A stretch of DNA of 64,000 nt from Candidatus Kaiserbacteria bacterium (GTDB lineage Bacteria > Patescibacteriota > Minisyncoccia > Phycocordibacterales > UBA2100): the NCBI GenBank assembly GCA_023267655.1, contig JAHFMV010000003.1, forward strand, positions 16,522 to 80,521, read 5' to 3'. The position numbers and the translations under genes were made by a program. Position 1 is the stretch's first letter; each line of letters opens with the position of its first letter. Of this stretch, positions 967-54,515 are shown one piece after another. Under the pieces are notes generated by a model, which saw only the letters and a program-made list of their open reading frames with translations, had not been told where the DNA came from and made no database searches.

Positions 967-1002
967 TAAAAAATGGCAAGGCGACGCCTTGCCATTTTTT
1001 TC
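967..1002. terminator. bidirectional intrinsic terminator
   Basis: A6 run, stem atggcaagg / ccttgccat with 5-nt loop, then T7 run; sits downstream of the minus-strand pilin operon. Confidence 0.6.
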
Positions 1003-1035
1003 CATCTCACTCAAACCCAAACAGCGGGGCGCGAT

Positions 1036-1154
1036 AGATGTCTTTGCTTCGAGAGAACATCGCGCAGCAGATACTAAAGCGTGATGTCATACAGCAGTAG
1101 ATGTGACGTTAAAGCGTCCGCTCAGTTCGTGTTCGGTCCGAAGCAAAGACATCT
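1036..1154. repeat. copy 1 of a ~110-nt conserved 3'-proximal element (core GAGAACATCGCGCAGCAGATA...GTGATGT.ATACAG.AGTAGATGTGACGT...CAGTTCGTGTTCGG) closed by a 16-bp perfect inverted repeat (agatgtctttgcttcg / cgaagcaaagacatct)
   Basis: Near-identical core also at 5741-5863 and, reverse-complemented, at 12815-12925. Lies between the stop of the 1174-2694 gene and the terminator. Confidence 0.7.
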
Positions 1155-1173
1155 GTCGCGCCAACGTCAACCT

Positions 1174-2694
1174 CTACTGCTCGCGCCACAGCACCAGCTT
1201 GTAATCCACCGAAGCCGAAGGCGTAAACGCCGGCGGCGAAAATGCGAGGAGGCGATCGTACGTATCAATGCGTTGCGCAAAGCCCGAGCAGTACGTGCCG
1301 CTGCACGTCCACTGCGTCCCAATGCGGCCGTTCGAAACCACGGTGCCGATCGTCGTCAGCTGCGTCTGTTTTACATACGACGTATACGCGCTCGGCACCG
1401 CGTTATTGCCTGTTTCTGCGTAATAATTCCTCCCGAAATATCCCGACTGCGCGACAAAAATCCCGCGCACGGTCATCATATCCGGCGATACCAGAGGAAT
1501 CGTTACCGATCGCTCGGCGATTGCGGTGAGGCCGCTGGAGCCCGTACCGGAAGAATATGTGATGTTATTTTGCAAAATAATATCCGGCGTATACGCGCCG
1601 GTATCGGCCGCAACCACCGTCACTTTGTTCCCCACGATGCCTTCGAGCCACGTCTTCGCTTGTACATAAATGATAGGACAGCCCGAGGGAATCGTGTAGT
1701 GACCTTGGTACGTCTCACTGGTGATGATGTCGTAGTCCGTCGCCCACGAGCCCGGATTATCGGTATGCACACTGTAGACGCCTTGCGTACCCGTCACGCG
1801 ATATACATCTATTGTATTGTCGGCATTTAATTTTACGTGGTAGCCGCGCTGGTCGGAGGCTCCAACAGAACTAAACGTCCCGCCCTGCTGCGAACCGCCA
1901 ACTTTCACGCGATCGATATCCAGAAGGATGCCTGTGGAGTTCGCGTAACCCCGCAGCGTGGCAAAGTTGGTCGCGATGCCCGCAAAATTAAATGACGCAA
2001 CGTTCGGTGCCCATGACCAGAGTGCAGAACCTGACCCCGAACCCCACACGCCGTTTTTGCTCTGCGTCGGCGAGCAGCCGAACGATGAATCGCACGACCA
2101 TGTCGCAACCGCGCTCTGCACGGTGGAATTGGTTGTGCCATCCATGCGAATGCCGCCGTTTGAAAAATACGGACCCGATATGACACGATCGGCACCCGCC
2201 CACACATTCGCATTGAGAAGCGCGGAATATTCTCCGACCGACGGTCGCATGTAGCGTGCGTTTAAGGTGCGCGTGAAGACAACTGACTGATCGGATTTCC
2301 CGACCGACGTGAGATCAACCCATTGCACCACTCCGCACTGCAAATTCGCTGTCGCGGTGATCGTCGATTCGCCGAGGCGGCTCGCTTCCGGATCATTGAC
2401 GATGTACGTATAGGGCGACGTGAGGCCGACGCCCGCGTTCATAATCGAAGGATTGTGCGCGAGGAACCACCGATAGTATTCAAGTCCCGCTTCGGAAATG
2501 TTAAATGCCTGCTCGCGCGCATTGAGCGCGCGGCCGTACTTCCCCTGTGTAAGCACATAACTCATGATCGTGGCGAGAAGAAAGAGAAAGATGCCCATGA
2601 ATGCAAGGACGAGCATGACGGTCACGCCGCGGGAGTAGCGTCGAGCGTCAAGCGTCGAGCTGCGAGACTTTTCTGCTTGCGTTGTGTATATCAT
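1174..2694 (-). CDS. PilX-like type IV pilus minor pilin / large pseudopilin (506 aa)
   Basis: N-terminal hydrophobic helix VMLVLAFMGIFLFLLATIMSYVL typical of the PilX N-domain; large Gly/Ser/Thr-rich extracellular region; clusters with pilB/pilC. Confidence 0.55.
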   Translation of the reverse strand: MIYTTQAEKSRSSTLDARRYSRGVTVMLVLAFMGIFLFLLATIMSYVLTQGKYGRALNAREQAFNISEAGLEYYRWFLAHNPSIMNAGVGLTSPYTYIVNDPEASRLGESTITATANLQCGVVQWVDLTSVGKSDQSVVFTRTLNARYMRPSVGEYSALLNANVWAGADRVISGPYFSNGGIRMDGTTNSTVQSAVATWSCDSSFGCSPTQSKNGVWGSGSGSALWSWAPNVASFNFAGIATNFATLRGYANSTGILLDIDRVKVGGSQQGGTFSSVGASDQRGYHVKLNADNTIDVYRVTGTQGVYSVHTDNPGSWATDYDIITSETYQGHYTIPSGCPIIYVQAKTWLEGIVGNKVTVVAADTGAYTPDIILQNNITYSSGTGSSGLTAIAERSVTIPLVSPDMMTVRGIFVAQSGYFGRNYYAETGNNAVPSAYTSYVKQTQLTTIGTVVSNGRIGTQWTCSGTYCSGFAQRIDTYDRLLAFSPPAFTPSASVDYKLVLWREQ

Positions 2695-2731: not shown

Positions 2732-3382
2732 CTACTTTAGATTCCTCAGCGCGGCTGTTGAGCGCAGGGTGAATTGGTTCGGCAACCGATTCGGATTGAT
2801 GTTAACGACGATCGTCGCTTGGACGAACCGCACTTCCGCGATTTTCGAGAGATCATTCATGAGCGTGCCATTCTGATCATAATACTGGAACATCAAGACA
2901 TTCTGTTCCGTGTTGCGCACATTGTCAGAAACGGTTGAGATCGTCTCCGGATTGGTATAAACCGGCGGATCGCTTGACGGATCAATGACACCGCGCATCA
3001 GAGAATTTCCTTGGAGAAAGAACCGCACTTGCTCGAGAAACGCATCGTCGTCAATGTCCGCATAAAATGAAAAGCTCGAGGTCGCCATCGAAATGATCGG
3101 CCACGCGCCATTCGAGGAATACGCGGCCTCGCGAATGGTCTTGATCATGCTCTCCATGCCGTGTTGCCCCGACGTGATCGCCGCGCCTTGCTCGACGGTG
3201 TACGTATTGGTGCGATAAAACGCTTGTACGGTTTGCGTGATCGCGAGCATGATCATCGTCGTGATCGCGACCCACACCATCGTTTCGAGCAAACTGATGC
3301 CACGGGAAGCGCGGCAGCCACTAGCGACTAGCCAATAGCCACTAGGGGAATGCTTGGATGCTTTTTTGATTTTGGATTTCAT
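2732..3382 (-). CDS. type IV pilin-like protein with prepilin-type leader (RG|ISLLETMVWVAITTMIMLAI)
   Basis: Class III signal-peptide motif G-ISLLE followed by a hydrophobic helix. The unusually long 28-aa leader is partly encoded by the TAGCCACTAG repeat. Confidence 0.6.
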   Translation of the reverse strand: MKSKIKKASKHSPSGYWLVASGCRASRGISLLETMVWVAITTMIMLAITQTVQAFYRTNTYTVEQGAAITSGQHGMESMIKTIREAAYSSNGAWPIISMATSSFSFYADIDDDAFLEQVRFFLQGNSLMRGVIDPSSDPPVYTNPETISTVSDNVRNTEQNVLMFQYYDQNGTLMNDLSKIAEVRFVQATIVVNINPNRLPNQFTLRSTAALRNLK

Positions 3383-3407
3383 ACTAGTGGCTAGTCGCTA
3401 GTGGCTA
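3317..3407. repeat. inverted pair of family-A repeats (agccactagcgactagccaatagccactagg 3317-3346; ctagtggctagtcgctagtggcta 3384-3407) bracketing the pilin start codon at 3380-3382
   Basis: Read directly from the sequence; same motif family recurs at 11480, 22043, 33670/33774, 40515/40553, 55017/55085. Confidence 0.7.
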
Positions 3408-3411
3408 ATTC

Positions 3412-5175
3412 CTAATTTAGTATCACCGAAAGCCGCGAGGTCCCCGAGACATTCACGGTGGTTGATGTATACGTCGTATAGCCGGCCGCAGAGACACTAA
3501 TAGAGTACGCATTACCGCTTCCCGACGTGCCCGATGCCATGTTCGTAAAGAATGATTGTCCGCAGCTATCAGCGAGAATGGTGGTATTTGATGCAGGCGC
3601 TATGGCGCGATACACGTGCACGCTTGCGTTTGGAATCGCAGCACCCGCCGCATTTTTCACATCGACCAGAAGCGAATTAGTCGTATGCGGCGAGACATAC
3701 AAAAGCGTCGTCACGCTCGCGCTGGGCGCGACGACAACCGGCTGCGTGCTACACGACGACGAAATGTCGTACCCCGTTGCGGAAGCAACGCTTAACGTAT
3801 ACGAGTCGTATTCAACATTCGAAATTGTCACCGACCCTGGCGCGCCTGTTGATTGCGCCTGATTATATTTATAGACAGGACCACTTGGCCCGCTGCCGAT
3901 CGTCTTTGCGCCTTGCATCGTAAAGGCAAGATTTGAAAGTGAAAGCGGCCCCGAGTCATTGGAGATTGCCCATGAATCGATCGATGGCGTGTTTGATGCG
4001 TTCGATGTGGTGAGCGTTGCATGTACGGCAAGCGCGAGATACGTCGAGGTCGAGACATTACTCAAATCAATCGACGCAGCTGAAAGCCCCGCCGCGTTCC
4101 CCGGGATCTGCGCATCGGGAATGAGTGATGTGCCGGAAGAATCATAAAAACGGAACAGGATATTCGTGGAGGCAGGTTGTGCGCCAACCCATGTAAAAGT
4201 CCGCCACGATTGCATCGTCGTCGTCGAGAGCGGGATTGATATCAACATGCCTGCGCTCGGATAGCCGCTCCCACCGCCGCTCGTCAGCTGCGCGACGCCG
4301 GATGCGACGGTGATATTCGTACTCGACGCGATGACGTTTGCATTTGAGAACGGTTCCGTTGACGTGGCACGCGCGATCGGCGTAAATGATTGCACGTTCA
4401 ATGATCCGAGCGTATCGATCGCAAATGTCGATGCGGTTGTTTGATTCAGAGCGACCCCCAGATGCGCTGGTGTCGGATTCGTGTTCGTCGACGATGCGCT
4501 GTAGGTCTGCGCGCTCGAATAACCAGATTTACTGACGGTGATCTGATACCCCGCTCCTGCAGGCGCCCCCACAATGCTCGCATTCCCCGCCGTGTCCGTA
4601 TAAGTCGTAAGATCGACCGCGGGCGAGACGCCCGCATTCACGATGCGCACTTGTGCGTCTTGCACGGCTTGTCCTGTCGCGTCCGCTGCCTGTATTGAAA
4701 TCGTGCCGCCGGGGACTGATGTCTCGACACCGGTCGGCGGCGTCAGGCGCGTGACCATCGTGATCGTGCGCGTACCCTGCCGTGTTGTCCACGAGACAGA
4801 AACCTTTGCCGCCTTAAAATCTTCCGGTATGTGGTTGGTATCCGCCGCGCCCGTGCCGTCGCCTGCGTCATCTTCGTAATCGATAAAGGTGCGTCGTGTG
4901 TAATTCACATCATTCAGTGCCACACTCTCGCTCTGTGGAATAGTTCCGGAGGGAATACCACTCACGGTTCCGACGGAATTATAGGAAAGCGAGCGAATGT
5001 ATTCGAGCCTTTCATTCGCGAGAGCGATCGCGCCCGCACGCGCTTTGTTATTCGACACCACGTCAACCGCAAGCCGAAACGCGCCGACGATGCCGACGAA
5101 CACAACAATCATGAGCGCCGAACCAACAACGACATCCAAAAGCGTCGAGCCCCGTTCCCCTTCGCGGCCATGCAT
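3412..5175 (-). CDS. large pseudopilin / minor pilin-like protein (587 aa) with prepilin-type N-terminus (G|STLLDVVVGSALMIVVFVGIV)
   Basis: N-terminal class III leader-like motif plus hydrophobic helix; Thr/Ser-rich extracellular domain; pilus locus context. Confidence 0.55.
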   Translation of the reverse strand: MHGREGERGSTLLDVVVGSALMIVVFVGIVGAFRLAVDVVSNNKARAGAIALANERLEYIRSLSYNSVGTVSGIPSGTIPQSESVALNDVNYTRRTFIDYEDDAGDGTGAADTNHIPEDFKAAKVSVSWTTRQGTRTITMVTRLTPPTGVETSVPGGTISIQAADATGQAVQDAQVRIVNAGVSPAVDLTTYTDTAGNASIVGAPAGAGYQITVSKSGYSSAQTYSASSTNTNPTPAHLGVALNQTTASTFAIDTLGSLNVQSFTPIARATSTEPFSNANVIASSTNITVASGVAQLTSGGGSGYPSAGMLISIPLSTTTMQSWRTFTWVGAQPASTNILFRFYDSSGTSLIPDAQIPGNAAGLSAASIDLSNVSTSTYLALAVHATLTTSNASNTPSIDSWAISNDSGPLSLSNLAFTMQGAKTIGSGPSGPVYKYNQAQSTGAPGSVTISNVEYDSYTLSVASATGYDISSSCSTQPVVVAPSASVTTLLYVSPHTTNSLLVDVKNAAGAAIPNASVHVYRAIAPASNTTILADSCGQSFFTNMASGTSGSGNAYSISVSAAGYTTYTSTTVNVSGTSRLSVILN

Positions 5176-5650: not shown

Positions 5651-5740
5651 GACTGTCCTCCATCGATTGCCTATTTCCAATGTCCACACTAACCCTACCC
5701 GAACGGTGCACAAAACTCAACACAACCACTAAGGAGCGAT

Positions 5741-5863
5741 GGCGTGAAAAATGCTTCGAGAGAACATCGCGCAGCAGATAGTAATACGTGATGTAATACA
5801 GTAGTAGATGTGACGTAAAAGCCACTGATCAGTTCGTGTTCGGGTTGAAGCATTTTTCACGCC
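5741..5863. repeat. copy 2 of the ~110-nt conserved element, closed by 17-bp perfect inverted repeat ggcgtgaaaaatgcttc / gaagcatttttcacgcc
   Basis: Core near-identical to 1052-1135; lies directly 3' of the pilC stop (5877). Confidence 0.7.
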
Positions 5864-5876
5864 ACCGCGACACGCT

Positions 5877-7133
5877 CTAGATATTGTCCGAGAGTTGGTA
5901 GATCGGGCTGATCATCGCGACTGCAAAGAAGCCGACGGCTGCACCGATCGCAAGCATAAGGAATGGCTCAATGATCGTCGACATGTCTTTCGTCTTCCGA
6001 TCCACTTCGTCTTCGTAAAAGACTGCAAGCTTTTTCATCATCTCGGTCAACTGCCCTGTCTCTTCGCCGACCGCAATCATCTCGCCCACAAATGCCGGGT
6101 ATAAATGCTCCGCGCGCACAAAAGCGCTCGAGAGCGGCTCACCTTTTGAAATATTTTCCTTCGCCTGCCCGATGACTTTCTTGAAATAATGATTCTGCAC
6201 AACGTCTTGCACGATCTCGAGCGAGGTCACCACATCCACGCCGCTCGAGAGAAGCGACGCGAGTGTCCGCGCCGTGCGCGCCGCATTCACCTCTTTCACG
6301 ATCGGCCCAATGATCGGAATGTGCAAAAAGACGAAATCCTTTGCGCGCCCGCCCGCTTCAGTGCGAAGCGCGGTATAGATGCCCCCGACGCCGATTATGA
6401 GAATTGAGAACGCAAGAATCGTGTACTCGACGAGGAAATTCGATACCGCGATGATTGCGCGGGTCGAAGCCGGCAGTTGCGCCCCCATTTCCTTAAACGT
6501 CGAGGCAAGCGTCGGAACAACATTGATCATCATAAAGGTACCGATGCCGAGAATCGCACAGACGATGATGATCGGATAGAGCATCGCACCACGAATTTTC
6601 TTCTTCAAGACATACATCCGCTCCATCTGGTCGGAGGTGACGACGAGTGCTTGCGGCATCTCACCGCCTTCCTCGCCCGCGCGCACCATCGCGACAAACA
6701 GTTTGGAGAAAACATGCGGGAATTTTGCCGCAGCAGAATGCAGTGTCTCACCGCGGCGCACCGCGCCCGATAATTCCGCAACCACGCTGCCGAGCCGCGG
6801 GTTTTTCGTCTGGCGCTCTATGACCGCAAGTGCTCGCGCAAGCGAAAGTCCCGCAGAGAGCATCGCGCCCAAGTTGCGCGAGAAGAGAATCTTCTCGTAT
6901 TCCGGCACCGTCGTTATTTTTGAATTCCAATACTGGAGGCTGAAGACGCCGTGCCTCTTTTCTTCGTCAACCGCGAGGATGCGGCCGCCTTCATGCCGCA
7001 CTATTTCGTACAACTCAAACCGATCGCGCGCCTGCGCGGTCCCTTTATATACTTCCCCGTCGCTTTTTTCCGCCGTGTATGAAAATCTCGCCACAGAATC
7101 AGTATACCGTATTCCGTATACAGTATTCCGCAA
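5877..7133 (-). CDS. pilC: type IV pilus assembly platform protein PilC (GspF family)
   Basis: Two GspF-type repeats and three TM segments; N-terminus ARFSYTAEKSDGEVYKGTAQARD typical of PilC. The first ~11 codons (TTG start at 7133) overlap an inverted-repeat arm, so the true start may be the GTG near 7094. Confidence 0.8.
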   Translation of the reverse strand: MRNTVYGIRYTDSVARFSYTAEKSDGEVYKGTAQARDRFELYEIVRHEGGRILAVDEEKRHGVFSLQYWNSKITTVPEYEKILFSRNLGAMLSAGLSLARALAVIERQTKNPRLGSVVAELSGAVRRGETLHSAAAKFPHVFSKLFVAMVRAGEEGGEMPQALVVTSDQMERMYVLKKKIRGAMLYPIIIVCAILGIGTFMMINVVPTLASTFKEMGAQLPASTRAIIAVSNFLVEYTILAFSILIIGVGGIYTALRTEAGGRAKDFVFLHIPIIGPIVKEVNAARTARTLASLLSSGVDVVTSLEIVQDVVQNHYFKKVIGQAKENISKGEPLSSAFVRAEHLYPAFVGEMIAVGEETGQLTEMMKKLAVFYEDEVDRKTKDMSTIIEPFLMLAIGAAVGFFAVAMISPIYQLSDNI

Positions 7134-7543
7134 AATGCACTATGTACGAATTCGATTTGGCGCCGTGCGGATTAATCCCGTCAACATTTGCGACACGGTT
7201 TCGGCTTTCTTTTCAAGTGCAGTAAAAGAATCGCGGGAAATATATTCCAAATCGCGTGCGATGAGTAACTGGCTCCTCAACTCTGAAAGTGAAGCGAGCG
7301 AAGTCGTATAAAAATTGATCTTGTCATTTTTCGTCTGCCGCACGAATCCCTCTGCAATATTTGAAGTAACAGAAACTGCGGCGCGGCGGATCTGACTGGT
7401 TAATCCGAAAAGTTCATCTTTTGGAAAAGTCTTGCTGGCTGTATATATCTCAAGAACAAGCGAGTGACCTTCTTGCCAAACACGTAAGTCCGTAAAACGC
7501 TGGATCATGGTGCGGTATACGGAATACTGTATACGGTATACGC
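7100..7543 (-). other. cassette: four-helix-bundle gene bracketed by ~31-bp inverted repeats (cagtataccgtattccgtatacagtattccg 7100-7130; gcggtatacggaatactgtatacggtatacgc 7512-7543) in the pilC-pilB intergenic position
   Basis: Arms are reverse complements over about 20 of 22 core positions. The right arm abuts the pilB stop (7544); the left arm overlaps the annotated pilC start. Confidence 0.65.
7140..7508 (-). CDS. four-helix-bundle protein of the 23S rRNA intervening-sequence protein family
   Basis: MIQRFTDLRVWQEGHSLVLEIY...AVSVTSNIAEGF matches the family's conserved N-terminal pattern (compare paralog at 54115). ORF-track start (GTG 7547) is encoded by the repeat arm, so ATG at 7506-7508 is preferred. 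Confidence 0.7.
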   Translation of the reverse strand: MIQRFTDLRVWQEGHSLVLEIYTASKTFPKDELFGLTSQIRRAAVSVTSNIAEGFVRQTKNDKINFYTTSLASLSELRSQLLIARDLEYISRDSFTALEKKAETVSQMLTGLIRTAPNRIRT

Positions 7544-9286
7544 TCACTCCGTAATCACACGCAACACCTCTTCAATAGTAGTAACTCCTTGCGAGGCTTT
7601 AAAAATCCCGTCTTCGATCATCGTGAGCATTCCCTCGCTGCGTGCTTGTTTTTCAATTTCATCCGCGGTCGCATTTTTCATCACATGCTCCTTAATGGTT
7701 GCAGTAACCGGGAGGACTTCATAGATACCGCGACGACCCGCGTACCCTTCCGGACACTCTGCCGTCGGCCCTGGTTTATAAAACGGCACGGTTTTCCAGG
7801 TCGCATTTGCGGCGACGATCTTCTCGTCTTTCAGTGCCTTGAGGACGACGCCGGCATCCAACGTGCTCTCAAGCTGCGTCTGTTCGTCGCGCGAGAGTTC
7901 GTACTTTTCGTGGCTTGGGCAGAGCATGCGCACGAGGCGCTGTCCTATGACAACGCGCAGAGTCGAGACGAGGAGGAACGGCTCGATGCCCATATCGAGG
8001 AGACGCGGGATGGCTCCTGCCGCAGAATTCGTGTGCAAAGTAGAAAGCACAAGGTGGCCGGTGAGCGCCGCATTGATCGCGAGTGATGCGGTTTCCTTAT
8101 CACGAATTTCCCCCACCATAATGATGTCGGGATCTTGGCGCACGAGCGAACGCAACCCGTTGGCAAACGTAAATCCAATATCCGGGCGCACCTGCGTCTG
8201 GTTCACCCGCTTCATTTGATACTCAATCGGATCTTCGACCGTGGAAATATTCACATCCGGCGTATTCAAAAGATCGAGAATCGTATAGAGCGTGGTGGAT
8301 TTGCCGGCGCCGGTCGGACCCGTCGTTAAGATGAGGCCGGTCGTTTGTTTCATCGCGCCATGCATTTGCTCCAAACCTGATCCGTGGAATCCGAGCGCTT
8401 CGAGCGAAAAGCCCGCGACATTATCACGCAAGAGGCGCATCACGATCTTTTCGCCGTAGTACGTCGGCAAAATAGAAACACGAAACGAAATTTTCTCACC
8501 GCCCGCTTCGACGCCAAAGCGTCCGTCCTGCGGCAATCTTTTTTCATCGAGCCGCATGTTGCCGAGGACTTTAATGCGCGCAGTGATTGCGGGCGCAGCG
8601 TGTTTCGGCAATTCCATCGCATCATGCAAGATGCCGTCGATGCGGTAACGGATGAGGAGCGATTCTTCGAGAGGCTCGATATGGATATCAGATGCATTTT
8701 GCGCGTTCGCGTGGCGCAAGAGCGTATCAACGATGCGCACAGCACTCACTCCCTCCGCCATCTGTCGCAAGTCTTCTTGCTTTGCGTCCGCACTTCCTGT
8801 TTTCGCAAGCGCATCGGTCTCGCGCTTGATGACATCGCCGAGATTGTCTTTGAGACCACGCTGGTACTGCTTGAGTGCGAGTTTCACCGACGCAGCGTCA
8901 GTGAGACGCGGCAAGATTTTCAAATGCGTTTTCTTCTTAATGAAATCGATCGCGGCGAGATCGTCAGTATCGAGCATCGCCACCTCGAGCTGCTCGTCTT
9001 TGTGGCTGTAGGCAATGATCGAATTGTGCCTTGCGACCGGTTCGGGAATGAGGGAGAGCGTTTCAAATGGAATCTGCTGCCCTGCGAGCGAGACAAACGG
9101 GATGCCGAGGATGTATGCGTAGGTGCGACGCAGTTCGTCCTCGCCAATTTTATTCTCCGCGATGAGAATATCCCCAATCGGTTTCCCGCGCTCTTTCGCC
9201 TCACGCTCGGCGGCCTCAAAATCTTTGTTCGAGATGAGCCCCGCGTCGGCGAGAAACGATTTTAAATGGGTATCAGAAATGTACAT
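7544..9286 (-). CDS. pilB: type IV pilus assembly ATPase PilB (GspE family)
   Basis: N-terminal GspII-type domain, Walker A GPTGAGKSTTLY, Walker B and His-box regions; 580 aa. Confidence 0.9.
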   Translation of the reverse strand: MYISDTHLKSFLADAGLISNKDFEAAEREAKERGKPIGDILIAENKIGEDELRRTYAYILGIPFVSLAGQQIPFETLSLIPEPVARHNSIIAYSHKDEQLEVAMLDTDDLAAIDFIKKKTHLKILPRLTDAASVKLALKQYQRGLKDNLGDVIKRETDALAKTGSADAKQEDLRQMAEGVSAVRIVDTLLRHANAQNASDIHIEPLEESLLIRYRIDGILHDAMELPKHAAPAITARIKVLGNMRLDEKRLPQDGRFGVEAGGEKISFRVSILPTYYGEKIVMRLLRDNVAGFSLEALGFHGSGLEQMHGAMKQTTGLILTTGPTGAGKSTTLYTILDLLNTPDVNISTVEDPIEYQMKRVNQTQVRPDIGFTFANGLRSLVRQDPDIIMVGEIRDKETASLAINAALTGHLVLSTLHTNSAAGAIPRLLDMGIEPFLLVSTLRVVIGQRLVRMLCPSHEKYELSRDEQTQLESTLDAGVVLKALKDEKIVAANATWKTVPFYKPGPTAECPEGYAGRRGIYEVLPVTATIKEHVMKNATADEIEKQARSEGMLTMIEDGIFKASQGVTTIEEVLRVITE

Positions 9287-9294
9287 AGGGATGA

Positions 9295-9362
9295 GGTTCT
9301 AGGTTCTAGGTTCTAGGTTCTAGGGAATCCGAAGTCCTCTGCAACCTTGCACCTTAAACCTG
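9295..9362. repeat. tandem heptamer (GGTTCTA x ~4.5) plus a family-B-like segment, 9 nt upstream of the pilB start codon
   Basis: gaggttctaggttctaggttctaggttctaggg then ctctgcaaccttgcaccttaaacctgacacctaa. On the pilB coding strand this reads CCTAGAACCT x4 immediately before the ATG. Confidence 0.65.
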
Positions 9363-11479: not shown

Positions 11480-11507
11480 CTATTGGCTATACCCTAGTGG
11501 CTAATTA
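11480..11507. repeat. family-A repeat unit (ctattggctataccctagtggctaatt) 9 nt upstream of the nusA ATG
   Basis: Shares the ATTGGCTA / CTAGTGGCTAAT modules with the other family-A copies. Confidence 0.55.
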
Positions 11508-11515
11508 CTATCCCT

Positions 11516-12763
11516 ATGGCTCTCTTTGACCTCAAAACACTCAACGCCGCGCTCGACGAGCTGCAGGCGGAAAAAGGTATTTCGCGCGCAAGCGTTGTCG
11601 AAGCGATCGCAACGGCGCTCGCTGCCGCGTATCGCCGCGAATACGGCAAGCGTGGACAAATCATCCGCGCAACATTTAATCCCGAGACGGGCGACTTGGA
11701 ATTTCGCCAGGCGAAAATCGTCGTCGACAATACTCTCGTTCGCCAAGAAGACGAGGAGCCAACATCAGATGAAGACCACCGTTCACGCTTCAACCCCGAA
11801 CAGCACATCATGATCGAGGACGCGCGTCGCATTAAGAAAGACGCAGCACTCGACGAAGAAATTTCCTTCCCGCTTGAATCACAAGAAGAATTCGGCCGCA
11901 TCGCCGCGCAAGCCGCAAAACAAGTCGTGATGCAGAAAATCCGCGAAGCGGAACGTGCATCCATCATCAATGAATACGGTGAACGCGAAGGCGAGATCGT
12001 CACCGGCCACGTGCAGCGCTTTGAACGCGGCAATCTGTACATCGACCTCGGTCGTGCGACAGCTGTGCTTCCGTACGACGAACAAATCCCGGGCGAACGG
12101 TATCGCCAAGGCGAGCGCGTGCGCGCACTTCTCCTTCGTGTTGATGAAGGTGTTCGCGGTACCTTCATCCGCCTTTCCCGCTCGCATCCAAAATTCCTCA
12201 CGAAACTTTTTGAGACTGAAGTGCCGGAACTCGCAAACCAGATTCTCGAAGTGAAAGGTGTCGTCCGCGAACCGGGTTCGCGCGCAAAAATCGCGGTACA
12301 TTCGAAAGACGAACATGTTGATCCTGTCGGCGCGCTTGTGGGACAGCGCGGCGTGCGTGTTGCTGTTGTCACGTCAGAACTCGGTGGCGAAAAAATCGAC
12401 GTCGTCGAATGGTCTGAAAAGGCAGGCGACTTTGTGAAAGAAGCACTCAAGCCCGCACAGGTCATGGACATCGAATTGAATGAGGATGAAAATCGCGCGA
12501 CGGTCACCGTCGCCGAAGATCAGCAATCACTCGCGATCGGCCGCGGCGGACAAAACGTCCGCCTCGCCGCACGTCTCACCGGATGGAAAATCGACATCCG
12601 CTCTGCGGGTGGCGAAAAGTCTGTCGAAGAACCAAAACCGGATGTGCCGGTTGAAGCGGAAACGACTGAAGAAAAAGCCACTGAAGGCGAGGAACTTACG
12701 AATCCCGAAGGCCAAGAAGATCGCGACATCCCGTCGGCCAAAGTTGAAGACGAGCAGAAATAG
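11516..12763 (+). CDS. nusA: transcription termination/antitermination factor NusA
   Basis: N-terminal NusA domain, S1 and two KH domains, acidic C-terminal tail. Confidence 0.9.
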   Translation: MALFDLKTLNAALDELQAEKGISRASVVEAIATALAAAYRREYGKRGQIIRATFNPETGDLEFRQAKIVVDNTLVRQEDEEPTSDEDHRSRFNPEQHIMIEDARRIKKDAALDEEISFPLESQEEFGRIAAQAAKQVVMQKIREAERASIINEYGEREGEIVTGHVQRFERGNLYIDLGRATAVLPYDEQIPGERYRQGERVRALLLRVDEGVRGTFIRLSRSHPKFLTKLFETEVPELANQILEVKGVVREPGSRAKIAVHSKDEHVDPVGALVGQRGVRVAVVTSELGGEKIDVVEWSEKAGDFVKEALKPAQVMDIELNEDENRATVTVAEDQQSLAIGRGGQNVRLAARLTGWKIDIRSAGGEKSVEEPKPDVPVEAETTEEKATEGEELTNPEGQEDRDIPSAKVEDEQK

Positions 12764-12769
12764 TTGAAT

Positions 12770-12973
12770 TTCAAAACCGACGCCGCGGAAAAGTGTCCGC
12801 TCGCGGCGCTCGGCGGTGTTCCTCCCACCCGAACACGAACTGATCAACGGATCGAATATCACATCTACTACTGTACGTCATCACGTATTGTTATTTGCTG
12901 CGCGATGTTCTCTGGGAGGAATACCGCCTATCGCCGTCTCGCTCCCTCTTCCGTCGGCGTTTGAGGTTTTGAA
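12770..12973. repeat. copy 3 of the ~110-nt conserved element (core 12815-12925, reverse-complement orientation on the plus strand) with extended imperfect outer inverted repeat
   Basis: Reverse complement of 12828-12912 aligns with cores at 1052-1135 and 5759-5845. Lies 7 nt after the nusA stop and before a terminator-like hairpin. Confidence 0.65.
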
Positions 12974-12994
12974 ATACGATTTGAAAAAAGTTTC

Positions 12995-15118: not shown

Positions 15119-15125
15119 TGTATTC

Positions 15126-15157
15126 ACCTAGAACCTAGTCCCTAGAACCTAACACCT
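15126..15157 (+). repeat. family-B leader motif (cctagaacctagtccctagaacctaacacct) ending 6 nt before the ATG at 15164
   Basis: Same CCTAGAACCTAACACCT module as at 54486, 55850 and, on the minus strand, 9295-9325. Confidence 0.6.
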
Positions 15158-15163
15158 ATCTTT

Positions 15164-22041: not shown

Positions 22042-22042
22042 T

Positions 22043-22067
22043 AGCGACTAGCCAATAGCCACTAGGA
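22043..22067. repeat. family-A repeat unit (tagcgactagccaatagccactagg) directly after the hup stop
   Basis: Identical to 3322-3346. Confidence 0.6.
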
Positions 22068-22127: not shown

Positions 22128-22198
22128 GCGGGATTAGTTTAATGGCAAAATGCGACTTTTCCAAAGTTGAATCGGGGGTTCGATTCCCCCATCCCGCA
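22128..22198 (+). tRNA. tRNA-Gly (anticodon TCC)
   Basis: Manual cloverleaf: acceptor gcgggat/atcccgc, D arm gttt-aatggca-aaat, anticodon arm cgact-ttTCCaa-agttg, T arm ggggg-ttcgatt-ccccc; 71 nt, no encoded CCA. Confidence 0.75.
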
Positions 22199-22202
22199 CT
22201 CT

Positions 22203-23369
22203 ATGGTTCGCTCTCTTCTACAACTTGCGGCCTCGCTTGGCATTGCATGCATTTTGGTGGCAGTCCTGTACATCGATGGCGCACAAGCACCCGTGTCTCT
22301 GCTATATCAACCAGCATCAACAACCCCATCAATCACAGAATCAACCTCGACGCCGCTCATTGCGTCAACGACCGTTGCAACGAGTACCGCAAAAAAGACA
22401 CCGGTAAAAAAAGCCGCGGCTAAGGCACAAAAGAGTCAAATAGCGACGACAACGCAAGGCCAGAGTGCAACAACGAGCACAAATGAAGTGCATCGTATCG
22501 AAAATCCCTACCCATTTCCCCCGCTTGCATCAGATTCGATCAATCAAAGCGCCCGCGCAGCTCTCGTGAATGTGTTTTGCCAAACTGCGGGAGGGCCGAT
22601 CAGCTCTATTTCAGGCTCCGGCGTGATTATTGATCCTCGGGGGGTTATTTTGACGAATGCCCACGTCGCGCAGTATGTCCTACTCTCCACGGAACCCGCT
22701 GCGGGATTGAATTGCTATATCCGCACCGGATCCCCCGCCGAAATACATTGGAACGTCGGCATTCTCTATATTCCAGCCGCTTGGGTGCAATTGCATGCAC
22801 AAGATATCGTCAAATCGAAGCCAAAAGGCACCGGCGAAAATGATTATGCGCTCCTGGTGATTACAGGTAGCACCGACGGCAACGCTCCACCAACAACCTT
22901 CCCCTACCTCCCGCCCGATACTCGTGAAGCCATTGGCTTTACGAGTGATCCAGTGCTCGTCGCCGCATATCCGGCGGAATTTGCCGGTGCATCGACACAA
23001 ACCGCACTATATCCCTCGACAGTCTTCACTCGTATCGGCGACCTACTTACGTTTGATGAGAGCACTGTTGATATCATTTCCCTTGGAAGTGTCGCGGTTG
23101 CCCAAGGTGGCTCATCGGGTGGCGGCGCCGTTAACGAATGGGGTCGGTTAGTGGGTGTTGTCACGACCACAAGCGAGGGAGAGACGACCGCGAATCGCGA
23201 ATTACGTGCCATTACGCTGGCCTATATCAATCGCGATATGCTTCGCAAAACTGGATCTACCCTCTTGAACTATATCGGTGCAGACCCCCTCACTAAGGCA
23301 CGAAGCTTTACGCAGAATGAAGCCCCGCTTCTCGCAAAGCAGGTTTTAGGCAATCTCCAAGGTCGCTAA
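22203..23369 (+). CDS. trypsin-like (S1/DegP-type) serine protease, membrane-anchored, Thr/Ala-rich linker
   Basis: His box GVILTNAHV, Asp DYALLV, Ser box GGSSGGGAV. ORF-track start at 22167 overlaps the tRNA, so ATG at 22203 is preferred. Confidence 0.65.
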   Translation: MVRSLLQLAASLGIACILVAVLYIDGAQAPVSLLYQPASTTPSITESTSTPLIASTTVATSTAKKTPVKKAAAKAQKSQIATTTQGQSATTSTNEVHRIENPYPFPPLASDSINQSARAALVNVFCQTAGGPISSISGSGVIIDPRGVILTNAHVAQYVLLSTEPAAGLNCYIRTGSPAEIHWNVGILYIPAAWVQLHAQDIVKSKPKGTGENDYALLVITGSTDGNAPPTTFPYLPPDTREAIGFTSDPVLVAAYPAEFAGASTQTALYPSTVFTRIGDLLTFDESTVDIISLGSVAVAQGGSSGGGAVNEWGRLVGVVTTTSEGETTANRELRAITLAYINRDMLRKTGSTLLNYIGADPLTKARSFTQNEAPLLAKQVLGNLQGR

Positions 23370-23376
23370 AATTTAA

Positions 23377-23447
23377 TCGGGGCGCCGAGAATCGAACTCG
23401 GTCTACTTGGTCCCAAACCAAGCGTACTACCGGTATACTACGCCCCG
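23377..23447 (-). tRNA. tRNA-Pro (anticodon TGG)
   Basis: Reverse complement folds as acceptor cggggcg/cgccccg, anticodon arm cttgg-ttTGGga-ccaag, T arm ccgag-ttcgatt-ctcgg; 71 nt. Confidence 0.7.
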
Positions 23448-23560
23448 CTCTTTTCTACTCACAAAAAACTTCTTCGCGTACGCCATACTACCACGGAAAA
23501 TTGCAAAGTGTACAACTTATAAAGGACACGGCGTGTCCAATATAATGTCCTTTACATATT

Positions 23561-23956
23561 TCACAGTATTTGCTCGAACAAACGACACCGCGCTTTCCTC
23601 GTAATGGGGTCTAGAATGACTCCCACCGCATCAATTTGATATTCCCTATCATCTTCCTTGTGTGCCATGTACAACTGCGCCGTACGAACAATCTTCTTAA
23701 GTTTAGCTGGATGAATCTGCTCTTCCGGCCGATACGAGTTGCTTTCACGTGAAAGACTCTCAAGATCGCCAGATACTGCTTTAACCTCGATAAAACGAAC
23801 TTCGTTATTTTTGAGGGCTATTATATCGATCTCACCCCATGGTTTCCGATAATTCATCTCGATAACTTTGAATCCTTTGCGCTCAAGAAACTGCCGTGCG
23901 ATATCCTCTCCAAGTGCACCAGTCTGACTCGTCTTACTTTTAAGCATACATTTCAC
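23561..23956 (-). CDS. YraN-family (UPF0102) endonuclease
   Basis: GE(D)IARQFLERKGFKVIEMNYRKPWGEIDIIALKNNEVRFIEVKA matches the YraN/UPF0102 pattern; AT-rich coding sequence. Confidence 0.55.
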   Translation of the reverse strand: MKCMLKSKTSQTGALGEDIARQFLERKGFKVIEMNYRKPWGEIDIIALKNNEVRFIEVKAVSGDLESLSRESNSYRPEEQIHPAKLKKIVRTAQLYMAHKEDDREYQIDAVGVILDPITRKARCRLFEQIL

Positions 23957-24159
23957 GTGAAAGCACCATATCTATGTTTCTTAAGTTACATTTAAGATGC
24001 CTTTCACGCGAAACTTCCTGTCTAATACAATAATATAGCTCAAAATATGCCTTTCTAAAGGAATGCGTCTTTTAATGAAGACACTGGTCATTTGTCCGAT
24101 ATCCACATATCCCCAGAGTTGTCCACATATCATAATATATTAAGACGTGAACTGAACCA

Positions 24160-24861
24160 TTGTCTGTTACTATTCAATATATGAGAAAAGATAAAATGTT
24201 AGCGATAAATATGAGGAAAACAGGTAGCAGTTACAACGAAATTCTTGAAGCTTTGAGAATTCCAAAAGCAACTCTATCGGACTGGTTTTCTAAGGAGGGA
24301 TGGTCTAATGATATCAGAAAAAAACTGACGACGACCGCGTACGAGGCACATTCCGTGAGAATGCGTGAGCTGGGTCGCGTTAGGGGAATTCATTTAGCGA
24401 ACGTGTATGGTGAGGCGCGACAAGAAGCGATCGTCGAGTACGAAGCAATGAAATATAATCCTCTTTTTATAGCTGGACTGATGACGTATTGGGGAGAGGG
24501 GGACAAGGCAACAAAACACACTGTGAGACTCACGAATACTGATCCTGAAATGCTGCGTTTATTCTTAATCTTTCTCACAAAAGTGTGTAGTATTCCACTG
24601 GAGAAAATTGGAGCACATATTCTAATTTATCCTGATTTAGAAGCAAAAAATTGCCTTGACTATTGGTCGCAGAAAACAGGACTGCCTATCGAACATTTTA
24701 CAAAATGTGTCACGATACAAGGCCGTCATAAAACAAAACGCCTCGGATTTGGGGTTGCAGAAATGTACGTCTGCAGTACGTATTTTAAAGCGAAAGTTCT
24801 AAAATGGCTTGAGTTATTGCCGCAGGAGTTGATGAGCAGAGAATATTATGCGAGTATATGA
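24160..24861 (+). CDS. hypothetical protein with N-terminal HTH-like region and a weak LAGLIDADG-like segment (FIAGLMTYWGEGD)
   Basis: AT-rich ORF (visibly lower GC than surroundings) between tRNA-Pro and tRNA-Gly; family assignment uncertain. Confidence 0.35.
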   Translation: MSVTIQYMRKDKMLAINMRKTGSSYNEILEALRIPKATLSDWFSKEGWSNDIRKKLTTTAYEAHSVRMRELGRVRGIHLANVYGEARQEAIVEYEAMKYNPLFIAGLMTYWGEGDKATKHTVRLTNTDPEMLRLFLIFLTKVCSIPLEKIGAHILIYPDLEAKNCLDYWSQKTGLPIEHFTKCVTIQGRHKTKRLGFGVAEMYVCSTYFKAKVLKWLELLPQELMSREYYASI

Positions 24862-24866
24862 CCGAC

Positions 24867-24937
24867 GCGGGTATGGTTCAATGGTAGAACAGGTGGTTGC
24901 CAATCACCTGATAGGAGTTCGATTCTCCTTACCCGCA
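24867..24937 (+). tRNA. tRNA-Gly (anticodon GCC)
   Basis: Acceptor gcgggta/tacccgc, D arm gttc-aatggta-gaac, anticodon arm ggtgg-ttGCCaa-tcacc, T arm aggag-ttcgatt-ctcct; 71 nt. Confidence 0.8.
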
Positions 24938-24955
24938 CAAAGAAGTTTTATCAGT

Positions 24956-25027
24956 TGCTCCCGCCAAGAGTCGAACTTGGAACGGCTGCTTCGAAGGCAG
25001 TAATGATATCCATTTCACCACGGGAGC
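24956..25027 (-). tRNA. tRNA-Arg (anticodon TCG)
   Basis: Reverse complement: acceptor gctcccg/cgggagc, anticodon arm actgc-ctTCGaa-gcagc (one A:C mismatch), T arm ccaag-ttcgact-cttgg; 72 nt. Confidence 0.6.
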
Positions 25028-25075: not shown

Positions 25076-26536
25076 ATGAAGCGATCGGTTCCGCAAGAGG
25101 TACTTGATGTGCATTCGCGACTGCGTAAGGCAGGATTTGAGGCATACCTTGTGGGCGGGTGCGTGCGAGATCTCCTCCTGAACAGAGAACCGAAAGATTG
25201 GGATATTACGACGAACGCAAAGCCAGAGGAGATTCAACCCCTCTACGAAGAAACATTTTATGAAAATGCTTACGGCACCGTCGGTGTGGTCACACAATCA
25301 GAAAATCCGCGGTTGAAAGTCATCGAGGTGACACCGTACCGCATCGAAGGGGAGTACTCGAATGCACGACACCCTGACGATGTGACGTGGGCAAATAATC
25401 TCTCTGATGACCTCAAGCGTCGCGATTTCACCATCAACGCAATCGCATACGACCCCGAGACCGATACCGTTGTCGACGAGCATAATGGTCAGGAGGATAT
25501 TAAGAAAAAAGTGGTTGCAAGCGTTGGCGACCCGAACGAACGCTTTGCTGAAGACGCATTGCGCATGCTCCGTGCCATCCGTATCGCGGCAGAATTAGAT
25601 TTCGCGCTTGATGGAAATACGGCACAGGGGATCGCTCGAAATGCGTCCAAATTAGGGGATATTTCGAGGGAGCGTGTTCGCGACGAGCTCATCCGCATTT
25701 TAATGAGCGATCGGCCGCTACAGGCCCTCTACGTGGCTCAAAAGCTTGGTATTTTGAAGTACATCATCCCGGAACTTGAAGAAGGGATTGGGTGCGCCCA
25801 GAATCAAGCGCATTCATTCGACGTATTTGAACACCTCATGCGCTCACTCCAGCATGCGGCGGATAAAAAGTGGCCGCTGGAAGTCCGCCTCGCCGCGCTT
25901 CTTCACGACGTAGGGAAGCCGGCCACCCGCCGCTTTTCAGAAGATAAAAAAGATTGGACATTCTATGGTCACGACGTAGTCAGCGCTCGCATGGCAAAGA
26001 AAATCCTCTCCGAACTCAAATTTTCAAAAGAAGTAATCGCAAAAGTTGAAATCCTCGTCCGCTGGCACATGTTTTTCTCCGACCCCGATACCGTGACTCT
26101 CACCGCTGTCAGGCGTCTCATTTCGCGTGTGGGAGCGGAAAACATGCCGGACTTAGTAAATCTACGTGTTTGCGACCGCATCGGCACCGGCAGGCCAAAA
26201 GCGCATCCATTTAGGTTACGCAAATACATGTCGATGATCGACGAGGCGATGCGCGACCCGGTATCGGTTGCAATGCTCAAGATTGACGGGAATAGGATTA
26301 TGGAAGTAGGGGAGAAGGCAGGGCCTCGTATCGGCTGGGTGTTGCACGCGCTCCTGGAAGAAGTCCTCGACGATCCGGCAAAAAACTCGGAAGAATATCT
26401 TGAAAACCGCACGCAAGAACTGCTTAAATTATCTGATGAGGCGTTAAAAAAAGTGGGGGAGGCGGGCAAGGATCGCAGGGCAGAAGAGGACGCTGCGGCT
26501 GTGAAAGTCCTCCGTGATAAACATCACGTCTCCTGA
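25076..26536 (+). CDS. cca: CCA-adding tRNA nucleotidyltransferase with HD domain
   Basis: PolyA-pol/CCA head GGCVRDLLL...DWDITT...RRDFTINAIAYD and HD motif LLHDVGKP. Confidence 0.85.
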   Translation: MKRSVPQEVLDVHSRLRKAGFEAYLVGGCVRDLLLNREPKDWDITTNAKPEEIQPLYEETFYENAYGTVGVVTQSENPRLKVIEVTPYRIEGEYSNARHPDDVTWANNLSDDLKRRDFTINAIAYDPETDTVVDEHNGQEDIKKKVVASVGDPNERFAEDALRMLRAIRIAAELDFALDGNTAQGIARNASKLGDISRERVRDELIRILMSDRPLQALYVAQKLGILKYIIPELEEGIGCAQNQAHSFDVFEHLMRSLQHAADKKWPLEVRLAALLHDVGKPATRRFSEDKKDWTFYGHDVVSARMAKKILSELKFSKEVIAKVEILVRWHMFFSDPDTVTLTAVRRLISRVGAENMPDLVNLRVCDRIGTGRPKAHPFRLRKYMSMIDEAMRDPVSVAMLKIDGNRIMEVGEKAGPRIGWVLHALLEEVLDDPAKNSEEYLENRTQELLKLSDEALKKVGEAGKDRRAEEDAAAVKVLRDKHHVS

Positions 26537-26569
26537 ATTCCCAAGTAAGGCGACCAGCCGTATTGGCAG

Positions 26570-26675
26570 AAGGCAAAAAATGCTTCACGAGGGTCTTCGC
26601 AGCGGCGTCGGGCGCGAGACCGAGCGCTGGCGCAGCAGCGCCAGATAGCGACCCGAGGGAAGCATTTTTTGCCTT
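26570..26675 (+). other. long hairpin: 17-bp perfect inverted repeat aaggcaaaaaatgcttc / gaagcattttttgcctt enclosing a 72-nt GC-rich interior
   Basis: Shares the AAAAATGCTTC...GAAGCATTTTT closing stem and the GCGCAGCAG / CAGATAG words with the ~110-nt 3' element family; lies 34 nt after the cca stop. Confidence 0.5.
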
Positions 26676-26703
26676 TTGCCACAAACATACAAAGCAAAAG
26701 CCG

Positions 26704-26728
26704 CCCGGTTGTACCGGGTCTTTCTATT
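26704..26728 (+). terminator. intrinsic terminator-like hairpin (cccggt-tgt-accggg then tctttctatt)
   Basis: Read directly from sequence. Confidence 0.45.
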
Positions 26729-27077
26729 CCGGTACCGCTGAGCGGCTAACTTGTCCTGTTCTCGAAATAAGGTCATCTGGTTTATCTACAGTACGTTTTC
26801 CATTTTTGAGACAAAGGGTCTCTATATAAAGGGTGTACTTGTATAAACCGAATCTCCTCAAAAGATCACGGATACAGGATATCTGTCTAGTATGTAATAC
26901 CTGACAGTGGCTTCGTAAAACCTCGGAGAAAGGTTTCCCTTTCTTCCTCTTGTGTTTTAGAGGGGCCAAATATAGGAAGAAATAAATCTTCCCTGCAGAT
27001 AAGAATACTTTGCTATCGGACATTGTAAAGGACATGCTGTGGATAACTTCATGCGCCGATCATGTCCTTTAAAAAAG

Positions 27078-33404: not shown

Positions 33405-33671
33405 ATGCTGACGAAGCGAAAGAAGCAAAACGAAATCGGCAAGGTTAAGCGCCACGACACTGATACCGGCTCGCCGGAGGTGCAAGTCGCGCTCTTGACC
33501 CGCCGTATCGAAGAGCTCTCGGCACATTTGGATAAGAATCGTAAGGACAAAAGCTCCCGTCGCGGACTTTTGGGGCTCGTGGCTGATCGCCGCAAGCATT
33601 TGAAATACCTTGAGTCTACCAACAAGCGCTCGTATTCAGCGCTCACGAAGAAGCTCGGATTAAAAAAATAG
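33405..33671 (+). CDS. rpsO: 30S ribosomal protein S15
   Basis: Full-length S15 pattern (KRHDTDTGSPEVQVALLTRRIEELSAHL...RRGLLGLVADRRKHLKYL). Confidence 0.9.
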   Translation: MLTKRKKQNEIGKVKRHDTDTGSPEVQVALLTRRIEELSAHLDKNRKDKSSRRGLLGLVADRRKHLKYLESTNKRSYSALTKKLGLKK

Positions 33672-33800
33672 CGACTAGTGATTAGCCACTAGGAAATGCG
33701 GGCTCTCCAAATCGTCAGCTATAATCTGCATAGAGCAGATTTTTAGAAGCATTATCAGTTTTTATATTGAATTCACTAGTGGCTAATCGCTAGTGGCTAA
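33670..33800. repeat. inverted pair of family-A repeats (agcgactagtgattagccactagg 33670-33693; cactagtggctaatcgctagtggctaa 33774-33800) with an 80-bp AT-rich spacer, ending 6 nt before the ATG at 33807
   Basis: Read directly from sequence. Confidence 0.7.
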
Positions 33801-40514: not shown

Positions 40515-40575
40515 TTAGCCACTAGCCACTAGGGGAAAGGCGGACTGAATTTCCTATTGGCTAGTGGCTAGTGGC
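40515..40575. repeat. inverted pair of family-A repeats (ttagccactagccactagggg / cctattggctagtggctagtggc) with 17-bp spacer
   Basis: Read directly; ends 24 nt before the ATG at 40600. Confidence 0.7.
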
Positions 40576-40599
40576 TTTTTGTTCATGTATTATAGGGCG

Positions 40600-54510: not shown

Positions 54511-54515
54511 ATTCT

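Follow-up and report, generated by a model that had tools for sequence, protein, structure and literature searches.

Three hairpin units in the window

The stretch of DNA analyzed here (64 kb, hereafter the window) carries pilC (T2SSF; 5877..7133, minus strand), pilB (7544-9286, minus strand), nusA (11516..12763, plus strand), and a pyrophosphatase gene, all identified by Pfam, together with a 506-amino-acid (aa) gene of the pilus cluster that has no Pfam hit (1174..2694, minus strand). The closest homologs of NusA carry the names Candidatus Kaiserbacteria, Paceibacterota, or Patescibacteria. Behind the stop codons of the 506-aa gene, pilC, and nusA lie three copies of a conserved segment of about 85 nucleotides (nt), here called family A, each inside its own inverted repeat of 22 to 24 bp. 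These three copies had been predicted from the sequence, and all of them are found where they were expected. The 64 kb contain exactly three, and neither nhmmer with the --max option nor a covariance model run without filters found a fourth. The window contains the 17-mer GAGAACATCGCGCAGCA and the 14-mer CAGTTCGTGTTCGG exactly three times each, always in family A copies; when up to three mismatches are allowed, GAGAACATCGCGCAGCA has four matches in the window versus a chance expectation of 0.35.

Copies 1 and 2 lie on the plus strand. In copy 1, the 5' arm (GGCGCGATAGATGTCTTTGCTTCG; 1028..1051) forms 24 bp with the 3' arm (1139..1162), 23 of them Watson-Crick and one T.G, and the apical segment (AGAGAAC...GTTCGGTC; 1052..1138) scores 116.7 bits with the covariance model. 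Copy 2 has 22 bp between its arms (5736..5757 and 5847..5868), with one A.C, around an apical segment (5758..5846) scoring 110.8 bits. Copy 3, on the minus strand, is a unit of about 210 nt (12769..12978; 107.7 bits) made up of imperfect outer arms, a leader (GGGAGCGAGACGG), the stem, the core (12828-12912), and a trailer (GCGAGCGG); its stem has 24 bp (12804-12827/12913-12936), 21 of them Watson-Crick, and extends imperfectly to about 12769-12978. The whole copy 3 unit folds with -96.2 kcal/mol (z = -7.65), and the window copies, on either strand, have folding energies 5 to 10 standard deviations below those of shuffled sequences. With 24, 22, and 24 bp in copies 1, 2, and 3, the closing repeats are longer than had been proposed (16, 17, and about 14 plus 16 bp). 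Nor are they unrelated sequences: the 5' arms of the three copies share GCGAT(A)GG and are about 55 to 60% identical, and by this comparison of their sequences the closing stems are diverged homologs. The core identity is 85% for copies 1 and 2, 77% for copies 1 and 3, and 80% for copies 2 and 3, rather than the 85 to 90% given in the original prediction. Protein coding by the element was considered and rejected: 1-nt indels break the frame, stop codons occur in frame, and an invariant 21-mer shows no variation at wobble positions.

All three copies have the same orientation relative to the upstream gene, as had been noted, and follow its stop codon by 5 to 11 nt (11 nt for copy 1, 8 nt for copy 2, and 5 nt to the extended stem of copy 3), and in each case it is the reverse complement of the GAGAAC... 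strand that the mRNA of the upstream gene would contain. A bidirectional intrinsic terminator with a 15-bp stem and a T-run (968..1000, minus strand) stands beyond copy 1; the order on the minus strand is the gene (2694->1174), the element, and then the terminator (1000->968). Copies 1 and 3 had both been described as followed by a terminator hairpin, which is clear for copy 1, but copy 3 is followed merely by a weak terminator-like hairpin with TGTTTTGG. The location of the element between stop codon and terminator makes cotranscription the natural inference and would place the element in the 3' untranslated region (UTR), in agreement with the earlier proposal that the copies form a 3' extension of these mRNAs.

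Distribution and anatomy of families A and B

About 29 distinct full-length family A copies were collected from a Kaiserbacteria genome and metagenome contigs by a scan for an exact 20-mer followed by profile searches; the sample is biased toward close relatives, and orthologous copies are not independent, which leaves about 18 independent sites. The exact-pattern scans gave one Kaiserbacteria genome contig (L003, with two copies) and 28 metagenome loci, and the sole reference genome with the element is a Kaiserbacteria metagenome-assembled genome. Four of the 28 metagenome loci (L010, L015, L024, and L025) were discarded as 5'-only chance matches in G+C-rich coding sequence. Among seven genome-contig stretches, on six contigs of which five were from other organisms, the Kaiserbacteria contig alone was real. 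The 77 loci with a 16-mer on viral contigs were set aside as chance matches, none of them fitting the element model, and blastn found no match to the element in phage or plasmid collections. An Rfam scan, which had been proposed along with the original prediction, matched no family at gathering or E-value thresholds: with Rfam 15 at the gathering threshold, the whole window gave four tRNAs and nothing else, and in E-value mode copies 1 and 2 and the family B unit described below gave noise of the miRNA-precursor type (14 to 25 bits versus thresholds of 48 to 110). These four tRNA genes lie on both strands within 3 kb (22128-25027). Our literature searches found no description of such elements in Patescibacteria; we take family A and its sister family B to be previously undescribed, lineage-specific dispersed palindromic repeats of Candidatus Kaiserbacteria.

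A family A unit measures about 135 bp, and up to about 210 bp, with a G+C content of about 45 to 50%, and consists of a closing helix of about 22 bp around an apical segment of about 85 nt that is bounded by GAAC/GTTC. Its core contains the invariant blocks GAGAACATCGCGCAGCARATA, CGTG, GCAGTAGATGT (with the variants GCAGTAGAAAT and GCAGTGGTGAT), and GTTCGG, and some copies have a basal motif with the leader GGTAGCGAGACGG and the trailer GCGAGCGG. Among the loci examined, none contained a longer element sharing these ends, and L013 and L035 hold truncated, degenerate copies. At L013 (199-352, minus strand), a family A remnant comprising the first ~33 nt of the core runs straight into a complete family B unit, a junction pointing to nested insertion or to recombination of one family with the other.

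The stems are copy specific and near perfect in all copies, with 16 to 30 bp (median, 22; mean, 21.9) and 595 of 635 positions Watson-Crick. Each of the 12 stem pairs scored in the alignment covaries, showing as many as five pair types; 95.7% of stem cells are paired versus 61.5% in shuffles, none of 500 shuffles being as high, and when the partners are slid only 29 to 48% of stem cells are paired. L016b and L031, which occupy an orthologous site, have flanks about 85% and cores about 80% identical, and about half of their stem positions have changed, mostly by transitions compensated on the opposite arm. This covariation and these compensated changes confirm that pairing, rather than sequence, is kept in the closing stem, as had been predicted. 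The innermost 5 to 8 bp form subfamilies (...TGCTTCGA, ...GGTCGA, and ...CCTCCA). The shared arm sequence and the compensated changes between orthologs indicate that the stem is inherited and drifts under a pairing constraint. Hypermutation of the stems by transitions was considered, but unrelated stems give 0.224 versus 0.247 in shuffles, with no excess, the excess being confined to orthologs. A role of the stems as guides or spacers was likewise dismissed, the arms matching the window or the loci only by chance hits of 10 to 13 nt.

Conservation of the family A core (an interior of about 75 nt) is at the sequence level. RNAalifold and averaged pair probabilities found no conserved helix within it on either strand beyond the closing stem and GAAC/GTTC, and the candidate inner helices ACATC/GATGT and CGCGC/GCGTG were rejected, their sides being invariant or not covarying. 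The reading of the element as a structured RNA therefore does not hold in its classical form, of a domain closed by a P1 helix, as the core lacks a detectable conserved internal fold. The near-constant stem length (22 +/- 3 bp) is the sole structural hint for a molecular ruler.

A general scan for long inverted repeats found in the window one unit of a second family, family B (26564-26681, plus strand). Its imperfect stem of 32 bp encloses a core of 54 nt (TTCGCAG-hairpin-GAGACCGAGCGCT-hairpin(AGCA loop)-AGATAGC), and it lies between the convergent genes 25076-26536 (plus strand) and 26724-27035 (minus strand). Further family B units are found in L008, L009 (two), L013, L031, L032, L035, and L117; the analysis used eight copies including that of the window, the ninth (L117) having been added later. 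The 54-nt consensus core is TTCGCAG-hairpin-GAGACTGAGCGCT-hairpin(AGCA loop)-AGAYAGC, and the architecture is that of family A, with copy-specific stems of 16 to 32 bp. The two inner hairpins (loops ACG/GACG and AGCA) covary; a conserved fold of the core is thus detected in family B but not in family A.

In part of the copies, families A (read in the GAGAAC sense) and B (in the TTCGCAG sense) have the same flanks, namely, a leader (GGT)AGCGAGA(CGG) before the stem and a trailer (C)GCGAGC(GG) after it. Leader and trailer can pair as G-C, C-G, tandem G.A/A.G, and G-C, a pairing that is stable only in the GAGAAC/TTCGCAG sense. GTAGCGAGA precedes the stem of family A copies in L008 and L009 and of family B copies in L009 (two) and L117, and the remaining copies with the motif have (G)AGCGAG without GT ahead of the stem. 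CGAG/GCGAG stands on both sides of about 7 of the 29 family A copies and of 3 to 5 of the 8 family B copies; each side has a consensus of its own, and in copy 3 the sequence falls within the outer arms, which makes it motif-like rather than a duplication. No flanking direct repeats specific to a copy were seen. GCGAG(N)CGG was rejected as a genomic target site: 8- to 9-mers of this kind abound in coding sequence, with 71 hits in 258 kb, and the window hit at 17025 falls inside an open reading frame (ORF). In L117 (4590-4625), a B and an A unit stand head to head with 3 nt between them, their leaders making up a perfect palindrome of 14 nt (GCCGTCTCGCTACC-caa-GGTAGCGAGACGGC). One more trailer (GCCGCGAGCGGAA; L117 4758-4779), standing alone, adjoins the pilC stop codon there and may be the remnant of an earlier unit. 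Back-to-back pairs between convergent genes also occur in L016, L027, and L032.

Gene context, persistence, and mobility

The consistent orientation and position noted in the original prediction hold elsewhere too: the GTTCGG end faces the stop codon of an opposite-strand gene in 22 of the 25 copies with a callable neighbor. With genes at the loci called by longest-ORF heuristics, the stem of 19 of 23 copies starts within 13 nt of the stop codon on either side (-13 to +13), that of four contains the stop codon, and about 17 of the 29 copies lie inside arrays of codirectional genes on the strand opposite to GAGAAC. The neighbors are ordinary genes (rpoC, nusA, pilC, an nrdB-like gene, a nuclease, a histidine kinase, a SET-domain protein, and membrane proteins), whose families were named by reading the translations, except for the window genes scanned with Pfam. 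A separate canonical terminator stands beyond the element in window copy 1, L022, and L008. Family A units do not themselves look like intrinsic terminators, having a loop of about 85 nt and a T-run directly after the stem in only 1 of the 29 copies (L011). The terminator of L008 (3680-3700; CCCGCA-loop-TGCGGG-T8) reuses the outer end of the 3' arm of the element (3698-3823), and its 3' half repeats the beginning of the 5' arm; sharing the arm sequence, the hairpins of element and terminator would be mutually exclusive on the mRNA-sense strand.

Several occupied sites are common to different species, namely, those behind rpoC (L003/L009), the nuclease gene (L013/L032), and the histidine kinase gene (L016/L031). 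The pilC site is occupied not only in the window but also in L028, by family A, and in L117, by units of both families. At the shared sites of rpoC (L003/L009), pilC (window/L028), nuclease (L013/L032), and kinase (L016/L031), the flanks are 75 to 85% identical. On the other hand, close relatives lack the element at two of the three window sites. The syntenic locus L117, whose NusA is 87% identical, has no element at the sites of copies 1 and 3, with nothing behind its syntenic 502-aa gene where the 506-aa gene of the window is followed by copy 1. The nusA site is also empty in L114 (NusA, 93% identical), where 10 nt separate the stop codon from the AAAAAGTTTCA-hairpin terminator, which in the window stands beyond the 210-nt copy 3 unit; L028 likewise has no element at this site. 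Conversely, where L028 has an element (L028:2158), the window has a terminator hairpin only. L114 is the only clean, compact empty site for alignment, the intergenic DNA of L028 and the window, of L017 and L030, and of L117 being too diverged. This combination of sites shared between species and sites empty in relatives implies that the element is mobile on the time scale of species. L021 and L022 have clearly different elements at the same site, in flanks about 91% identical. The pilC copy of the window is far closer to its two window paralogs than to the pilC copy of L028; recent spread or replacement within the genome has therefore taken place. The whole hairpin is the unit of duplication; it is gained and lost at gene 3' ends and then persists while its stem drifts with compensation.

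Relative to L022, L021 (350-1420) has between the element and the shared terminator an extra gene of 356 aa, which by sequence resembles N-acetyl-gamma-glutamyl-phosphate reductase; this site would therefore also be a place of gene gain or loss.

Folding strand, function, and comparison with known repeats

Two kinds of evidence bear on which strand folds, and they point in opposite directions. Transition-type mispairs in the stems number 17 G.T versus 10 A.C in family A (GAGAAC sense; not significant) and 9 G.T versus 0 A.C in family B (TTCGCAG sense), whose inner hairpins, as read from the sequences, hold three further G.U and no A.C. The wobble asymmetry and that of the tandem G.A, both drawn from sequence, speak for the GAGAAC strand as the one that folds, which is antisense to the neighboring gene. 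Deamination of the nontemplate or lagging-template strand, as a simple mutational bias, would predict the opposite asymmetry for family A. The gene context, with the element placed between stop codon and terminator, argues for the mRNA strand instead.

We lean, with moderate confidence, toward a new lineage-specific palindromic repeat that resembles REP and MITE elements and is cotranscribed as a 3'-UTR stem-loop. Judging from its position, the unit would be transcribed within the 3' UTR of the upstream gene and fold into a long stem-loop. By analogy with what has been proposed for REP/BIME, ERIC, and Correia elements, its most likely role would be that of a cis-acting 3'-UTR hairpin, which might act as a barrier to 3' exonucleases or as a processing site for a double-strand-specific (RNase III-type) enzyme. 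A protein, whether the mobilizing enzyme or an RNA-binding factor, would in that case contact the conserved tip and the basal motif, which would stand two helical turns apart. Against a 3'-UTR hairpin, the G.T/A.C and tandem G.A asymmetries suit the antisense strand, the family A copy of L117 has the opposite orientation relative to pilC, and a plain stabilizer needs no conserved tip of 85 nt. Nor was a target-site duplication seen, or a mobilizing enzyme noticed in the 64 kb and the loci.

The conflict between the strand cues is the main reason why a mechanism acting on single-stranded DNA (ssDNA), REP/RAYT-like or attC-like, stays a serious rival, although one to which we give a low probability. 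The element would then be the substrate of a structure-specific DNA enzyme and its transcription incidental: the GAGAAC strand would fold and be recognized by the enzyme through its tip and the basal GTAGCGAGA.../...GCGAGCGG, with the stem as a spacer of fixed length. Precedents for such enzymes are the HUH/Y1 transposases of REP-RAYT or IS200/IS605 and the tyrosine recombinase of integron attC sites. The G.T versus A.C asymmetry, the tandem G.A in one sense only, the leader containing GTAG in four copies, the gain and loss at orthologous sites, and the head-to-head pairs in L016, L027, L032, and L117 all fit this explanation, as does a folding strand antisense to the gene whose stop codon adjoins, a geometry found in the recombinogenic bottom strand of attC sites. 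However, no candidate enzyme gene was noticed in the 64 kb and the short loci, the neighbors are housekeeping genes rather than cassettes, and the attC signature RYYYAAC/GTTRRRY is lacking, with only GAAC/GTTC pairing, and that at the tip and not at the base. Moreover, orientation tracks genes and not one direction of replication (copies 1 and 2 versus copy 3 within 13 kb, without a skew switch), and REP sequences are conserved palindromes, which the family A stems are not. A bolder view, which we regard as unlikely, takes families A and B as a new class, in the candidate phyla radiation (CPR), of structure-specific mobile hairpins or processed hairpin RNAs. A putative protein may recognize the tip and the basal tandem-G.A motif about 22 bp apart, with an arbitrary stem between them, and may be confined in its action to a single strand, the one antisense to the adjacent gene; the process may be REP/RAYT-like ssDNA transposition with inverted logic or a bacterial form of measured double-stranded RNA processing.

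The same strand asymmetries (G.T versus A.C, in families A and B) would suit an independent small RNA in the GAGAAC sense, whose conserved single-stranded tip would act in trans and which would come from a separate gene or be cut from convergent or read-through transcripts at the basal motif. An invariant 21-nt block within a large unstructured loop, the symmetry of the basal motif (CGAG on either strand), which might mark where a dimeric nuclease cuts, and the narrow stem length of about 22 bp would agree with such an RNA. We nevertheless think it quite unlikely, since no conserved promoter for the GAGAAC strand was found, the upstream flanks being unrelated, and no T-run follows the stem. 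The head-to-head leaders of L117 are merely 3 nt apart, about 17 of 29 copies lie in codirectional gene arrays on the other strand, and copy 1 has a bidirectional terminator just upstream in the GAGAAC sense. A complementary target of the 17-mer is also lacking in the window, where the sole near match has three mismatches. Highly improbable, finally, is an origin of the core as a small mobile insert that landed in the loops of preexisting terminator hairpins, the stems being target DNA. The stems do differ among copies, the elements sit where terminators are expected, and for Yersinia YPAL insertion at or beside dyad symmetries has been reported (PMC2229807), which counts in favor of such an origin. 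Yet the stems of the window paralogs are homologous, basal motif included, and at 16 to 30 bp exceed the 9- to 12-bp G+C-rich terminator stems of the window; only 1 of 29 stems is followed right away by a T-run, several copies have a separate terminator, and the empty nusA site of L114 shows no split hairpin.

As a dispersed noncoding hairpin that is gained and lost at gene 3' ends, the element is grouped with REP/BIME, ERIC, Correia, and YPAL. Like REP/BIME of enterobacteria and pseudomonads, it consists of extragenic palindromes dispersed at gene 3' ends, in transcription units and in the gaps between convergent genes, often as inverted pairs, and some Kaiserbacteria copies have a GTAG-like head before the hairpin. 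For REP/BIME, a role in mRNA 3'-end stability has been proposed (PMC8266576, PMC2817692, PMC3479197). REPs, however, are palindromes of 20 to 40 nt with a conserved stem and a short loop, whereas here the stem is free, differing within a genome, the tip is conserved (85 nt in A and 54 nt in B), the loop is 54 to 89 nt long, the copy number of family A is apparently lower, and no RAYT was noticed in the 64 kb and the loci. Correia/NEMIS of Neisseria, ERIC/IRU, and YPAL/RU-2 of Yersinia are similar in being noncoding, shorter than 200 bp, intergenic, and present at filled and empty sites; they are also transcribed with their neighbors, as the element presumably is. For the hairpins of these known elements, an effect on mRNA processing by RNase III or on stability has been proposed (PMC2229807). 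These elements have conserved inverted repeats and target-site duplications, often TA, whereas the inverted repeat is the least conserved part of family A, with no consistent duplication. The MITE reading offered in the original prediction cannot be upheld in this strict sense. The element is short (about 135 bp), noncoding (no conserved reading frame), dispersed in about 29 copies, and polymorphic in its presence at orthologous sites, all as in MITEs; but its inverted repeats are not terminal repeats conserved in sequence and tied to an autonomous insertion sequence (IS), no parent IS is known, and the arms are its most variable part.

Integron attC sites are imperfect hairpins of about 60 to 140 nt at the stop codons of ORFs, in fixed orientation and with the antisense strand folding. 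Placement at or over the stop codon, a structure better conserved than the sequence, and AAC...GTT at the ends of the conserved part are common to attC and the element. Conversely, attC sites have conserved R and L boxes at the base and a variable tip, an arrangement reversed in family A, whose ends are (A)GAGAAC...GTTCGG(G/T), without attC core sites and with GAAC/GTTC atop the stem as the only such pair, and here the neighbors are housekeeping genes, with no integrase or cassette array. The inverted repeats at the 3' ends of chloroplast mRNAs define or protect the mRNA 3' end rather than terminate transcription; they too stand directly behind the stop codon, and their stems diverge between species while pairing is kept, but they form no repeat family, have no conserved loop sequence, and are immobile. 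The element does not match the defining features of REP/BIME, ERIC, Correia, or YPAL, and its conserved loop and free stem reverse the REP/MITE design.

CPR genomes are small and streamlined, and few repeat or noncoding RNA families have been described in them. Here, at least two related families stand at the 3' ends of core genes (rpoC, nusA, and pilC) and are persistent across species and yet moving. The covariance model can be used to annotate these intergenic regions, the elements can serve as natural insertion markers for comparing strains and species, and the tip and basal motif with a helix of about 22 bp are a defined bait for a protein that binds or moves them. If the strand asymmetry is real, it raises the question of what renders the antisense strand at a gene 3' end single stranded.

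The window also holds repeats of other kinds. Arrays of a 7-nt unit, TAGCCAC/TAGCGAC (as TAGCCACTAG; 27 matches in the window versus 0.96 expected), are found at 3315-3407, 11480-11503, 22042-22065, 33669-33799, 40516-40577, and 55020-55113, often as two inverted arrays 20 to 90 nt apart just upstream of genes. One lies 13 nt ahead of the nusA start and another about 60 nt ahead of a tRNA; they may be binding sites of a regulator or a promoter-associated element. Further intergenic arrays of heptamers or 14-mers lie at 9294-9324, 7513-7542, 15125-15158, 54479-54511, and 63373-63415, with units such as AGGTTCT (4.4 times, just upstream of the pilB start), CGGTATA, CACCTAGAACCTAA (twice), and TTGATAA.
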